From positions 7,584-71,583 of the IMG/VR virus record IMGVR_UViG_3300014204_007706: 64,000 nucleotides of DNA. One strand, written 5' to 3'. The position numbers and the translations under genes are program-made. Under the pieces are notes generated by a model. It ran no database searches and was not told where the DNA came from. It worked only from the letters and a program-made list of their open reading frames with translations. Each line of letters begins with the position of its first letter. The first letter of the stretch is position 1. Shown here in pieces: positions 11,790-43,660 of this stretch. This DNA comes from a virus (taxonomy: Duplodnaviria > Caudoviricetes).

Positions 11790-12262
11790 GCGGCGTCCAC
11801 CTTTTTCATTGTAAATGGTACAGTTGCTGCTGCGATTGCATCTGTTACGTCATTTGATACGTTCGTTAATTTGTGCTTAGTACAAATATACTTGTAAATG
11901 TCATCCTTGTCAACTTTCGTTCCGGGAAAAATTGCAGAACGTATCGTAGCGGGCATAAGCAGATAAAGTTTAGAACTTGAGCTGTGCAATCTGCATGCTA
12001 AGATAGCAGCGCCGCTATATCGTGCGAGAATCTTTAGAGTCTTAATATTTTTTCCAAAGAATACGTCCTCAATCACAATATAGTCGAAGGGTCCATGAAG
12101 TTCAACGATGCTTTTTATAAGCTCGCTAAACATCATAAGATTATCACCCAGACGCTTCTTCTTATCGAAATTCAGATTGGTGTGGTAAACTACGAGGGGG
12201 CCGTCCGAAAGGACGGCTACCCCCGTAGAAGTTTGTGATATGTCAAGCCCTAAGACGCGCAT
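11777..12262 (-). CDS. ruvC: RuvC-like Holliday junction resolvase
   Basis: VLGLDISQTSTG, IVIEDVFFGKN, DVTDAIA acidic RNase-H-fold motifs. Confidence 0.85.
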   Translation of the reverse strand: MRVLGLDISQTSTGVAVLSDGPLVVYHTNLNFDKKKRLGDNLMMFSELIKSIVELHGPFDYIVIEDVFFGKNIKTLKILARYSGAAILACRLHSSSSKLYLLMPATIRSAIFPGTKVDKDDIYKYICTKHKLTNVSNDVTDAIAAATVPFTMKKVDAAWVI

Positions 12263-20377: not shown

Positions 20378-20427
20378 ATAGTATACGACAAAATGACGTA
20401 ACCTGCTAGTATTGTCGTATACTATAC
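20378..20427. promoter_or_regulatory. Back-to-back divergent promoters (14-bp inverted repeat) at the strand switch
   Basis: ATAGTATACGACAA 20378-91 is the exact reverse complement of TTGTCGTATACTAT 20412-25; a fourth copy of the origin palindrome lies at 20383-20401. Confidence 0.7.
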
Positions 20428-34055: not shown

Positions 34056-34084
34056 TTGACAAATGTAGTCCTTCCTGCTATACT
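34056..34084 (+). promoter_or_regulatory. Sigma-70-type promoter for the tRNA-Arg/RNase P transcript
   Basis: TTGACA-17nt-TATACT. Confidence 0.8.
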
Positions 34085-34095
34085 GTTTCCAATAA

Positions 34096-34171
34096 GCGCC
34101 TTTAGCCTAACGGATCAGGCGGCGGGCTACGGACTCGCAAAAGGTGGGTTCAACTCCTCCAAGGCGCGCCA
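34096..34171 (+). tRNA. tRNA-Arg(ACG)
   Basis: Acceptor GCGCCTT/AAGGCGC, anticodon arm GCGGG-CTACGGA-CTCGC, encoded CCA. Confidence 0.9.
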
Positions 34172-34212
34172 ATAACAATACTGAGGAGACTTATGGGCGT
34201 AAGAAGGTAATA

Positions 34213-34661
34213 AGGATATCCAAGCAAGTGCGGCTAAGCCAGCATAGTTAGTTACCGGGGAAGCGTAATCCTTAGGACAAATAACTAGCGTGTACGCAGT
34301 GTTGGCTTAGCCGAGGAAAATCCCGGCATATTGGGGCGCTGTACCGGAGTTAATTCCGGACGAGTAATCGATGAATAGGGGACAGAGACGAGGCGTAGCA
34401 AAGCTTTAGCTGAAAAATACGCAGCGTGAGTAGCTGCGTTAGGGCTTCCTCAACCCAAGGCTATAGTGAATCTGGTAGTGGGCAGTCCGCAGTTAAGAGC
34501 TAGGGCATATGAAACGGCCAGACCTGAGCTACTAAAATGAGACGACCAACCTCTACAGCATGCAAGACGAAATAGGCGGACTATGACGTGACCCCACCGA
34601 GTCCGCGGGTACGTCGCTTAGATTGATACTTGCATAAACAGAACCGGGTTTATGGATACCT
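34213..34661 (+). ncRNA. rnpB: RNase P RNA (bacterial type-A-like, extended P3, P18 absent)
   Basis: GAGGAAAATCCCGG (34313-26) pairs with ACAGAACCGGGTTTA (34638-52) as P4; P2 GCAAGT/ACTTGC; 14-bp P3; GCAAGACGAAATAGG, L15 GGT and P15 GACG/CGTC; P6 TGGGG/CCCCA. Confidence 0.9.
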
Positions 34662-34677
34662 GAAAATAAGGAATACT

Positions 34678-37605: not shown

Positions 37606-37866
37606 ATGCTTGACGGCGTTGAGGTTCTGGGAGGCATTGCCGCGGTACTTACTACCATTGAGGCAATACCACAAGTTATTAAATCTATACGTACGCGTAG
37701 TACCCGGGATATCTCTTTAGGATCCATTATGGTGGTTATATCCGGATTACTCTGCTGGACTGCCTATGGGGTAATAAAGAAAGACCTATGGATTGTTCTC
37801 TCTACAGGAATTGCCACGTTATTTTACATAACTTTACTTGTTGTGAAACTGGCATTTGAGAAATAA
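37606..37866 (+). CDS. SemiSWEET/PQ-loop (MtN3) membrane transporter
   Basis: Three hydrophobic helices, IPQVIKSIRTRSTRDIS, CWTAYG; start moved to ATG 37606. Confidence 0.85.
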   Translation: MLDGVEVLGGIAAVLTTIEAIPQVIKSIRTRSTRDISLGSIMVVISGLLCWTAYGVIKKDLWIVLSTGIATLFYITLLVVKLAFEK

Positions 37867-37871
37867 ACCCC

Positions 37872-37900
37872 TTGACAAATTACAGCCTTTCTGTTATAGT
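37872..37900 (+). promoter_or_regulatory. Sigma-70-type promoter
   Basis: TTGACA-17nt-TATAGT just upstream of tRNA-Leu. Confidence 0.75.
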
Positions 37901-37909
37901 ATGTCATAC

Positions 37910-37994
37910 GCGAGTATGGCGTAATTCGCAGCCGCGCCAGACTTAGGATCTGGTCCCGCAAGGGGTGGGGGTTCAAGTCCCTCTACTCGCACCA
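37910..37994 (+). tRNA. tRNA-Leu(TAG)
   Basis: CCAGA-CTTAGGA-TCTGG, long variable arm, CCA. Confidence 0.92.
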
Positions 37995-38480
37995 TAGGGC
38001 TGTAGTCATGGGAGCCCACAATCCCGTGTCCGTGCACCGGCCTACGATAAGCCGGCTGGATTTATAGATCTTGGGCCTTCTTAGAAAGCCGACTGCGCAA
38101 CAGCTGGGTGCTTTCGGTGGCAACCGAAAGGTTTATGGGTAGCAGAGTATAGGGTGGTCACTTTTAGGAGCCCTCAATGAACACCAACAGCCCTAAGCAA
38201 TGGCAAGGACCGTCCTATAGGCGTCCCTTGTGAAGCGTAGCCCCCACACTTGAGGTGGGCGTACTTATAAAAGGTTTCTTGCCGAAGGGCATCGGTTTCC
38301 GTTTTGTTCGTGGGACTAAGTCGACTCCTTGCAGGGACACGGGCAATGATAACCGAGAAATTATTGGCTTACGGGCTTAGCGGCCCGCGGACTGCGCAGC
38401 TAGGGCAAACTGCGAATTGCCAGAAAACAACCCGATTGAAATTATAAAGCGAGGGTGGTGTAAGATGAAGAACTTAATAA
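37995..38480 (+). ncRNA. Large structured non-coding RNA of unknown class
   Basis: No credible ORF; crossing 9-bp helices and many hairpins; 3' boundary approximate. Confidence 0.6.
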
Positions 38481-38617
38481 AGATCCATTCATGAATAGTA
38501 AACGTGGGCATTACATATATAAGTTAAAACAGTTGTATCATCATAGGCAGACTGTAAGAAAGCATGACTCTATATACTGGAGCCGCTTTGCAAACTGGAT
38601 TTGTGAGGAGAGGCCAA

Positions 38618-38941
38618 ATGGGCTGGAAAAACCTAAAGAAGTTTGATATTATAGGAATAACTAAGAGACGTATGCGGCAGTGTATGAAGGACAATCCGGA
38701 GTTGCGTTTACAAAATAATCCGCAAAGGATAGCAAAAAAGCGGAGGGTGTTGCCGTGGAATTCTCCAGGAACATATTCTGTGAGCGTTGACTTAGCTGCT
38801 GGTCCCATACAGGTGGGCTCCACTGTAGTGTTAACAAATACGGGTAAAGTAAAGGTGACACTAGATGCACATACAAAACCCTTTGGAATTGCGTTGTCCA
38901 CAAGTGATTCCAAAGGTACGGTCACAATCCAGGTCTATTAA
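38618..38941 (+). CDS. PQRIxK-motif protein with possible DUF2190-like (capsid cement) C-terminal domain
   Basis: GAGGAG RBS; NPQRIAK; GPIQVGSTVVL...PFGIAL...VTIQV beta-rich pattern. Confidence 0.55.
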   Translation: MGWKNLKKFDIIGITKRRMRQCMKDNPELRLQNNPQRIAKKRRVLPWNSPGTYSVSVDLAAGPIQVGSTVVLTNTGKVKVTLDAHTKPFGIALSTSDSKGTVTIQVY

Positions 38942-39332: not shown

Positions 39333-39444
39333 AGTAATAAAACCGCACTTTGAGATAGAGAATGCTTGCTGGTGGATTCTGGGTGGCGCCGGTAGGGCAT
39401 TTTCAATGTTGCACAAAAAGAGCTTACGTAAAATTAAATTATAG
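39229..39444 (+). CDS. Hypothetical protein
   Basis: 71-aa ORF whose TAG ends on G1 of tRNA-Leu(CAA); overlaps previous ORF. Confidence 0.4.
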   Translation: MGKVILYVGKEQKVLHGTWKTKTGALLTGEALKSEVIKPHFEIENACWWILGGAGRAFSMLHKKSLRKIKL

Positions 39445-39528
39445 CGAGTGTGGTGGAATTGGCAGACACAGTGGTCTCAAAAGCCACAGGGGCAACCCAT
39501 GGGGGTTCAAGTCCCTCCACTCGCACCA
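39444..39528 (+). tRNA. tRNA-Leu(CAA)
   Basis: GTGGT-CTCAAAA-GCCAC, long variable arm, CCA. Confidence 0.92.
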
Positions 39529-39541
39529 AAAAGGAGTTAAG

Positions 39542-40102
39542 ATGTTTTCTGAAATATCAAGAAACAAAAAGACAGACTTTATTTATAACTCAAACTTAAT
39601 TGAAGAAATAGGGTTTGACAAAAAAGAATATAAAGACTGGGACTCATCAAGCTACCCGGAAATATCCGGGCATGCTATGGCGACAGACTACATGTTACAG
39701 AACTGTAGTACACAACTAAGTGAATATACCATTTTGGTTATGCATGGCATGCTTACACGTGGCTTGGTGCCTAGTAAATATCGTGGCGCATATAGAGATT
39801 GTATGGTATATATTGGCGGTCATGAAGGTCTGCCTCCTGTAGGTATAAAGCCAGCGATGTCACAGCTTATACGACATGCTGCTGTAGCAAAAACTGAACA
39901 GGACTGCTGGAATATACACCACGAGTTCGAGGTCATTCATCCGTTTATTGACGGTAATGGCAGGACCGGAAGGTTAATACTTAACTGGATGCTTTTGCAT
40001 AATAAGCGTCCGTTTAAGATCATAGATATCAAAGATAGATTTACGTACTATGACCAGATAGAGGAATATCGGCGCGAGCAACTGCGCCGGAAGTATGAAT
40101 AG
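39542..40102 (+). CDS. Fic/Doc-domain protein
   Basis: Canonical HPFIDGNGRTGR; FIYNSNLIE; start moved to ATG 39542 (AAGGAG RBS). Confidence 0.9.
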   Translation: MFSEISRNKKTDFIYNSNLIEEIGFDKKEYKDWDSSSYPEISGHAMATDYMLQNCSTQLSEYTILVMHGMLTRGLVPSKYRGAYRDCMVYIGGHEGLPPVGIKPAMSQLIRHAAVAKTEQDCWNIHHEFEVIHPFIDGNGRTGRLILNWMLLHNKRPFKIIDIKDRFTYYDQIEEYRREQLRRKYE

Positions 40103-40639: not shown

Positions 40640-42570
<1,931 letters not shown>

Positions 42571-42586: not shown

Positions 42587-43660
42587 ATGCAGTTATTACT
42601 ACAACAAGAGTCAGAGATATCTCTGCCTCATATGGAAAATTTCGCCATCGTTTTATGTGGTGGGGGTGGCGCCGGTCGTTGGCAAGCTGGAGTTTTGGCG
42701 GCTTTGGCTCAACAAGGCGTCATAGAACGCGCCCGCGTAATATCTGGAACGTCCGTGGGTGGGATTAATACAGGAATTTTTGGTTTATACGGATTGACAC
42801 AGGGCGCAACTTCCTCTTTAAATCCCTGTCCTACTCCAAGATGGCATCAAGCTGTAGACGTATGGGAGTCAATAACCAAAAATTCTGATGGCTATAAAGG
42901 TGACCTTACGAGCCTTCCTGGACAGATAGGGTCGGGAGTAGGCCTTCTTGCAGGTAGTGATTGTCTTTTAAACCCGGACCCTTTGCACCAAAAAATAGAT
43001 AATATTTTTGGATCACTGGATATGGAAGCAGTGTCTGAAATTTCCGGTGTGCACTTAATGATCTCTGCAATGGACTTAAATTCACAGCTTGAGGAATTTT
43101 ACACCAGCTTTGGACCAGATCGCAGCATGAAAATATCCGAAGCTATAAAAAGAACCTCGGCGCTGCCTGTCGTTTTTAAATCACAACCAGGTAAAGATTC
43201 GGCGCACCCTAACGCCGTACACTGGCATGTTGACGGCGGTTTGGCCGCTAATAATCCATTTTTAGCCTTGAATACCTATAACAGAAATTTTCCAGGGGCA
43301 CAGGTAAAGAAAGTTATTATTGTATACTGCTACCCTGATATAACCACGGATATTGGTATAAGTACGTCAACAGCTAATGATAACACAGAGTACAGAATGG
43401 CACGCGACGTGGCTTTACGGTCTTTGGGGGCAGTTATGAATGGGCAAGAACAGATGGCTGAGTCGGTAATTATAGACAAAGTTAAAGAAGCCGGCTGGGA
43501 CGTGTTAGCTTTGTACCCAAAAAATGCTCCCTGTGATGCTATAAATTTTTCCAAGACCATATTGTTGCAGGAAGGTTACGACTATGCTGTTGCCGGCAAG
43601 GGTTACTCTTACAGAGATGACGCGACTATAAACATTATTGATTTTTTAAAGCGTACATGA
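42587..43660 (+). CDS. Patatin-like phospholipase
   Basis: GGGAGR (GxGxxG), GTSVG (GxSxG), VDGG. Confidence 0.88.
   Translation: MQLLLQQESEISLPHMENFAIVLCGGGGAGRWQAGVLAALAQQGVIERARVISGTSVGGINTGIFGLYGLTQGATSSLNPCPTPRWHQAVDVWESITKNSDGYKGDLTSLPGQIGSGVGLLAGSDCLLNPDPLHQKIDNIFGSLDMEAVSEISGVHLMISAMDLNSQLEEFYTSFGPDRSMKISEAIKRTSALPVVFKSQPGKDSAHPNAVHWHVDGGLAANNPFLALNTYNRNFPGAQVKKVIIVYCYPDITTDIGISTSTANDNTEYRMARDVALRSLGAVMNGQEQMAESVIIDKVKEAGWDVLALYPKNAPCDAINFSKTILLQEGYDYAVAGKGYSYRDDATINIIDFLKRT

Follow-up and report, generated by a model that had tools for sequence, protein, structure and literature searches.

A gene-free stretch behind a phage tRNA-Leu(UAG) gene as a candidate structured RNA

In the genome of an uncultured phage from a landfill metagenome, the gene for tRNA-Leu(UAG) and the start codon that follows it are separated by more than 600 nt without a gene, and the question is what this stretch of DNA does. 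An earlier note had read it as a pseudoknotted non-coding RNA of about 480 nt (37995–38480), co-transcribed with the tRNA and belonging either to the GOLLD or ROOL RNAs or to a new class of large RNAs. Here, the locus is analyzed within a window of 64 kb, that is, the whole stretch of DNA to which all positions refer. The window comprises most of a 71.6-kb viral contig of IMG/VR, the completeness of which is estimated at about 48%. Features are on the plus strand unless the minus strand is named.

The stretch behind tRNA-Leu(UAG)

Beginning at position 20412, genes follow each other closely, and they and all tRNAs are located on the plus strand. The upstream neighbor of the candidate stretch is a gene for a SemiSWEET-type PQ-loop protein (37606–37866), which is followed by a sigma-70-type promoter (37872–37900) and by the gene for tRNA-Leu(UAG) with an encoded CCA (37910–37994). 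The tRNA was found by ARAGORN as well as with the Rfam tRNA model (51.5 bits). The promoter agrees with the consensus at 11 of 12 positions (TTGACA, a 17-nt spacer and TATAGT), carries a TG before the −10 hexamer, which makes it an extended −10 promoter, and ends 9 nt before the tRNA. The next gene encodes 107 aa and starts with an ATG at 38618, as it also does in the gene annotation of an independent assembly. It is preceded by a strong Shine-Dalgarno motif (GAGGAGAGG, 38606–38614). A search for relatives of this protein, which has 125 aa when the longer ORF is taken, yielded none, so that it is an orphan. Further downstream are a Fic gene (39542–40102), situated between two more tRNA-Leu genes, and the genes for GroES and GroEL (40640–42570). 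A mechanically called ORF of 246 aa (39362–40102) crosses tRNA-Leu(CAA); the real Fic protein has 186 aa and starts at 39542 (Fic/DOC, E = 8e-15).

With the CCA of tRNA-Leu(UAG) ending at 37994, the first base of the stretch is 37995, that is, 1 nt after the CCA, as the earlier note had it, and all the strings and coordinates quoted there were found in place. Its estimate of the extent was partly right: the 480 nt are indeed gene-free, but the real gap runs from 37995 to 38617 (623 nt), and its GC-elevated, ORF-free core is about 445 nt long (37995–38440). The GC content of this core is 0.52–0.55 (0.525–0.57 in 200-nt windows), compared with 0.438 for the 64-kb window. Along the gap, the GC content is 0.525–0.57 up to about 38400 and then drops to 0.38, the value of the AT-rich tail (38441–38617), at the end of which the Shine-Dalgarno motif is located. 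Among the ORF-free gaps of more than 250 nt, the GC content of the candidate gap (0.508) is close to those of the gaps with the RNase P RNA (0.504) and the tmRNA (0.501), whereas the others have values of 0.35–0.42.

The designation of the stretch as non-coding agrees with every line of evidence on coding capacity. The longest ORF with a start codon has 47 aa (code 11) and the longest stop-free frame 64 aa; gene-sized frames are also absent under code 4 or with TAG read as Q, and no frame of the stretch matched Pfam or PHROGs. Likewise, the gene caller of the independent assembly placed no gene between the SemiSWEET gene and 38618. This independent assembly, from ENA, is identical to the record, and the two sequencing runs listed for the locus, both of DNA, carry the same phage with zero variants in the stretch.

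Several kinds of decayed or duplicated sequence were considered and rejected. For a decayed tRNA array, there is no sign of remnants, the only likeness being 15 nt (38448–38462) that resemble the 5′ end of tRNA-Leu(CAA) and are not significant. For a decayed protein gene, neither tblastx nor Pfam nor PHROGs revealed a protein remnant. An internal duplication was considered in view of 12-nt near-repeats (38011/38167 and 38088/38387) and a weak alignment of one half of the stretch with the other (P = 0.04); it was dropped because the spacings of the near-repeats disagree.

The sole terminator-like site between tRNA-Leu(UAG) and the next gene is weak. It consists of a hairpin of five pairs and an interrupted U-tract (38281–38308), which could be a 3′ end or an attenuator. 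Altogether, six terminator-like sites were found in the scanned region, and 7.3 were expected from shuffled sequences.

Promoter class and the RNase P RNA unit

The promoter in front of tRNA-Leu(UAG) is one of a class that is strongly enriched in this phage. The pattern TTGACA-N16-18-TATANT has 10 matches in the window, versus 0.19 expected, at positions 11885, 23665, 28055, 34056, 37872, 47941, 49281, 49522, 51446 and 59146, and several of these sites are directly in front of tRNA or other RNA units. The only one on the minus strand is that at 11885, and no promoter of this class is found between 37872 and 47941. Weaker promoter-like sites are present downstream of the tRNA at 38417 and 40326.

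The closest twin of the promoter at 37872 is that at 34056. It heads a unit (34056–34667) in which the promoter is followed by tRNA-Arg and then by an RNase P RNA of the phage itself (34277–34667, 391 nt). This RNA gives a match to the entire RNaseP_bact_a model of Rfam (73.9 bits, E = 2.5e-22), with a score below the gathering score of 100, and was missed by the default scan and found by a permissive scan. It contains a co-varied P4 (GGAAAAUCCCGG / ACAGAACCGGG). The presence of a full-length RNase P RNA in the 34056 unit means that the phage demonstrably uses a layout of promoter, tRNA and large RNA. The RNase P unit resembles the candidate unit in its promoter class, its tRNA-first layout, its elevated GC content and its length of about 390–450 nt. 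The difference is that the RNase P RNA matches a known family over the full model, whereas the candidate stretch matches nothing and has no similarity to RNase P RNA.

These two units are part of a larger inventory. In the record, ARAGORN detected 13 tRNAs and one tmRNA (14 genes), and Rfam yielded about 17–18 tRNA matches plus the tmRNA. The host-like stable RNA set of the phage, which comprises tRNAs, tmRNA, RNase P RNA and tRNA-shaped modules, is unusually rich.

Predicted pairings and the search for relatives

Two long-range helices had been at the center of the earlier proposal. In helix A, 37995–38003 (TAGGGCTGT) pairs with 38187–38195 (ACAGCCCTA), and in helix B, 38023–38031 (CCCGTGTCC) pairs with 38335–38343 (GGACACGGG). 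Both consist of nine perfect pairs and the two do cross, just as had been described. The long-range pseudoknot derived from this crossing did not hold up in the same way: the crossing 9-bp helices are no evidence for one, because the matches are within chance. At least two perfect 9-mer complements were obtained in 11.8% of 2000 dinucleotide shuffles. For long-range complementary 9-mers, P was 0.087 for the candidate stretch and 0.031 for the RNase P unit. The tmRNA unit lacks such 9-mers entirely, and five are found in a coding control (42600–43170), versus 0.58 expected (P = 0.006). In this phage, the number of long-range 9-mers is thus no means of telling RNA genes from other sequence.

Beyond the nine pairs given before, helix B can be extended to 14 nt with 13 pairs (38023–38036/38330–38343), and this length was matched in only 3 of 300 shuffles (P about 0.01). 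Its arms are bounded by CAAT (38019–38022 and 38344–38347), and hairpins adjoin it on both sides (38037–38055 and 38344–38366), with which coaxial stacking would be possible. In the predicted ensemble, the probabilities are about 0.35 for helix A and about 0.27 for helix B, and both helices are near-optimal alternatives, within 1 kcal/mol of the minimum free energy (MFE). Forcing helix A costs 1.0 kcal/mol above the MFE. Helix B has two competitors that are both likelier, namely a local hairpin (38007–38013/38022–38028, p = 0.73) and a pairing of 38306–38312 with 38338–38344 (p = 0.72).

The list of local hairpins in the earlier note was largely correct. Four are present, that is, CCGGC/GCCGG (38037–38041/38051–38055), CTTTCGGT-GGCA-ACCGAAAG with 8 bp and a GGCA loop (38111–38130, pair probability 0.45–0.61), CAATGAT/ATTATTG (38344–38350/38360–38366) and CGGGC/GCCCG (about 38372–38387), but GCCC..CAC/GTGGGC exists only as an imperfect, bulged stem at about 38237–38264. 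The most probable local hairpin, with 6 + 4 pairs and a pair probability of 0.81–0.86, is found at 38203–38231 and is part of the centroid structure.

The folding energies were of little help. The z-score of the MFE was +0.49 for the stretch, −0.60 for the phage RNase P RNA, +0.91 for the tmRNA and −2.19 for the reverse strand of the stretch. This measure carries no weight here, since values near zero are also obtained for the RNase P RNA and the tmRNA of the phage. Two motifs noticed by eye, a pair resembling the 11-nt GNRA receptor (UAUGG / CCUAAG) and a T-box-like AGGGUGGU, were discarded, as neither has supporting helices or a model match. In addition, the D-arm region of tRNA-Leu(UAG) (37923–37931), in which this tRNA departs from its bacterial counterparts, has a perfect 9-bp complement toward the 3′ end of the stretch (38410–38418), which taken alone is within chance. 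On the sequence at hand, the proposed pseudoknotted fold and the new RNA class are unproven.

The earlier note had also called for a collection of homologues, and none could be obtained from any of the phage, viral, metagenome or genome collections searched. Within its own 71.6-kb record, the stretch finds only itself and has no paralogue. Homologues were absent from the loci around relatives of GroEL, of a 131-aa gene and of the DNA polymerase, from the whole records of the nearest phages, and from 1.17 Mb of loci searched with tblastx and nhmmer. Scans of viral contigs with exact patterns and with hairpin-flank patterns gave chance matches only. With the 3′ half of the tRNA as an anchor, no homologue of the stretch was found in genome and viral contigs, including those of phages with the same tRNA, and patterns of the tRNA junction and of the RNase P P4 variant found none in metagenome contigs. 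The genomes of the candidate host class (24) and phylum (99), as well as three genomes sharing the tRNA, contain no copy; short matches in genomes of the host group occur only in a coding-looking stretch without a nearby tRNA.

The phage as a whole stands nearly alone among known sequences. The best relative of its DNA polymerase in IMG/VR is 31% identical, and the best relative of its GroEL among 5.8 billion proteins is 63% identical. The tRNA-Leu(UAG) is nearly identical to the tRNAs of two uncultured bacterial MAGs (L131:4600–4684 and L133:4797–4881), from which it differs almost only in the D-arm, and in both MAGs a terminator hairpin follows the tRNA in place of the candidate stretch. As a clue to the host, this tRNA points to a small phylum with 99 species genomes, all of which are MAG-sized.

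The closest relative of any gene of the phage was found on a contig of 2.7 kb (L162, JGI 3300014205), which encodes a dGTPase-like protein with an identity of about 66–68%. On this contig, the dGTPase-like gene is joined directly to GroES/GroEL. The intervening island of the phage (36311–40640, 4.3 kb), which is lineage-specific and contains small orphan genes, the SemiSWEET gene, three tRNA-Leu genes, a tRNA-Trp gene, the Fic gene and the candidate stretch, is absent. Therefore, the island is dispensable in a relative. Another phage (150 kb, GC 0.32), the one with the nearest GroEL (62% identical), has two gene-free gaps with a GC content of 0.45 (L027:58–446 and 765–1362). These GC-rich gaps were considered as relatives of the stretch and rejected; they consist of repeated (terminator) hairpin units and are unrelated.

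Explanations for the stretch and comparison with known RNAs

Taken together, the best reading of the stretch is a co-transcribed and probably structured RNA, because the stretch is gene-free, has the GC content of RNA genes, follows a strong promoter and has a layout like that of the RNase P unit. Specifically, we tentatively favor, with slightly less than even confidence, a phage-specific structured non-coding RNA of about 310–450 nt that would be made in one transcript with the upstream tRNA-Leu and released when the tRNA is processed. This reading is also favored by the occurrence of 623 gene-free nt within a tightly packed plus-strand genome, by the lack of tRNA remnants, by the finding of no more than a single, weak terminator-like site ahead of the next gene, and by the extension of helix B to 13 pairs in 14 nt (P about 0.01). 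Against it stand the failure to find a homologue, the better folding of the reverse strand, a count of long-range 9-mers that is within chance and below that of the coding control, and the absence of the island on the L162 contig.

The transcription, processing, stability, fold and function that we infer for the candidate RNA would be as follows. The transcript would start at the 37872 promoter, run through tRNA-Leu(UAG) and continue into the stretch. The 5′ end of the tRNA would be cut by RNase P, for which the phage carries its own RNA subunit, and the 3′ end would be formed by an endonuclease and trimming at the encoded CCA. Excision of the tRNA would leave the 5′ end of the downstream RNA at or near 37995. 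For its 3′ end, there would be two candidate places, the weak hairpin with its U-tract near 38308 and the drop in GC content near 38440. The candidate RNA would then join the stable RNA set of the phage and would probably act in translation or RNA processing during infection. In a bolder version of this reading, large structured phage RNAs would form a further, new class, of which this stretch would be the first example to be sampled. The RNA would be released from a tRNA-led transcript, closed by the long-range, 13-bp helix B and perhaps joined to its 5′ end by a pseudoknot, and it would be part of an RNA toolkit of the phage that is unusually complete (tRNAs, tmRNA, RNase P RNA and tRNA-shaped modules). 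In this full form, the proposal seems unlikely to us.

The main rival holds that the stretch has no function and is a remnant within a variable accessory island, transcribed only as part of the operon. It might be residual DNA that came in along with the tRNA, an RNA gene in decay or a small mobile element of the non-autonomous kind. We regard this rival as possible, if somewhat doubtful. The uniqueness of the stretch in every collection searched would fit, as would the lack of the dGTPase-like-to-GroES island in L162, the helix counts within chance, and the tRNA-Leu(UAG), which looks recently taken from a bacterium. Furthermore, the arms of the extended helix B form an imperfect inverted repeat of 14 nt (38023–38036/38330–38343; 13 pairs, P about 0.01) with CAAT on both flanks, which is how the TIRs and target-site duplication of a MITE-like element would look. 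However, a flanking repeat of only 4 bp is weak evidence, and the multiple copies of a MITE-like element were not found: the stretch is single in the phage record, and there is no second copy in the 99 genomes of the host phylum, in the three genomes sharing the tRNA or in phages with the same tRNA. Moreover, neither a protein remnant nor a tRNA remnant is present, and the stretch has the GC content of the proven RNA genes and not of the other spacers of the phage.

The third explanation is a long cis-acting leader, that is, an attenuator or processing spacer for the 107-aa gene, the further tRNAs, Fic and GroES/GroEL, which we consider rather improbable. As there is no consensus promoter between 37872 and 47941, these downstream genes probably depend on the transcript from 37872, which the weak hairpin and U-tract (38281–38308) could attenuate, and the gene-free sequence reaches as far as the strong Shine-Dalgarno motif at 38606–38614. 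However, no riboswitch, T-box or leader family matched the stretch, 623 nt is long for a leader, and the terminator-like site is weak, such sites being no more common than in shuffles. The weaker promoter-like sites at 38417 and 40326 also speak against a leader.

Much less probable than a leader would be an element of the reverse strand or a site that acts at the level of DNA (origin, packaging, recombination). Compared with its shuffles, the reverse strand has the better fold (z −2.19; 3 of 100 shuffles), and Watson-Crick inverted repeats do not indicate the strand, but every gene and every tRNA after position 20412 lies on the plus strand, the sole consensus promoter of the minus strand is that at 11885, and the stretch contains no minus-strand promoter or terminator. 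For a DNA-level site, neither iterons nor an AT-rich unwinding element are present.

The known RNA families were searched with the Rfam models, in line with the check suggested for this locus. None of the 4,227 families of Rfam 15 matched the stretch at E ≤ 10, either alone or with its flanks, including GOLLD, ROOL and the group I and group II introns, so that the proposed membership in GOLLD or ROOL was not borne out. For ROOL (RF03087, threshold 99.1 bits), no match at E ≤ 10 was found in the whole 71.6-kb record and likewise none in 14 control genomes, which means that this search had no positive control. For GOLLD (RF02032, threshold 150 bits, conserved 3′ domain), there was also no match at E ≤ 10. 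In Rfam 15, RF02032 is GOLLD, and RF01998 is group-II-D1D4-1. The intron models gave no match at E ≤ 10, the flanking genes are complete, and the tRNA, which ends before the stretch, is intact. The RNase P RNA models (RF00010 and RF00011) did not match the stretch, and here the RNase P RNA of the phage, found by a like scan, served as positive control. The recovery of this divergent RNA below its gathering threshold by the same permissive scan means that the method can see divergent members. A divergent GOLLD, ROOL, group I or II intron, RNase P RNA or other catalogued family is an exceedingly improbable explanation, even though the stretch is similar to ROOL and GOLLD in size and in its proximity to phage tRNA genes.

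If the candidate RNA is real, it would be another large RNA of obscure function placed by phages beside tRNA genes. As RNase P RNA and tmRNA are also encoded by this phage, it could then be examined in the context of the take-over of tRNA processing and translation by the phage. At present, with one sequence at hand from one uncultured phage of a landfill, its value is that of a lead for expression and probing experiments.

By sequence and model, the stretch falls into no known family; by kind, it fits the pattern of the known, unexplained RNAs of phage tRNA regions. ROOL and GOLLD RNAs are "often near tRNA islands" of phages, and one GOLLD RNA is located downstream of a tRNA-Met (bioRxiv 10.1101/2024.12.08.627333). 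The genomic setting described for ROOL (phage or prophage, near tRNA islands) is also that of the candidate stretch. The likeness extends to a long non-coding stretch of a phage beside tRNAs, many hairpins, possible long-range pairings and an obscure function. The candidate is shorter, with a core of about 445 nt and a gap of 623 nt, compared with 574 model positions for ROOL and typically more than 800 nt for GOLLD. A second parallel is provided by RNAC and RNAD of phage T4, small stable RNAs of obscure role that are transcribed from the phage tRNA region (PMC3014915). In a blastn search (11-base words), none of the 50,697 deposited phage records matched the stretch, and the T4 RNAs are small, whereas the candidate stretch is three or more times longer. 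Their arrangement, with transcription from the tRNA region, is by analogy the mechanism that may apply to the candidate stretch.
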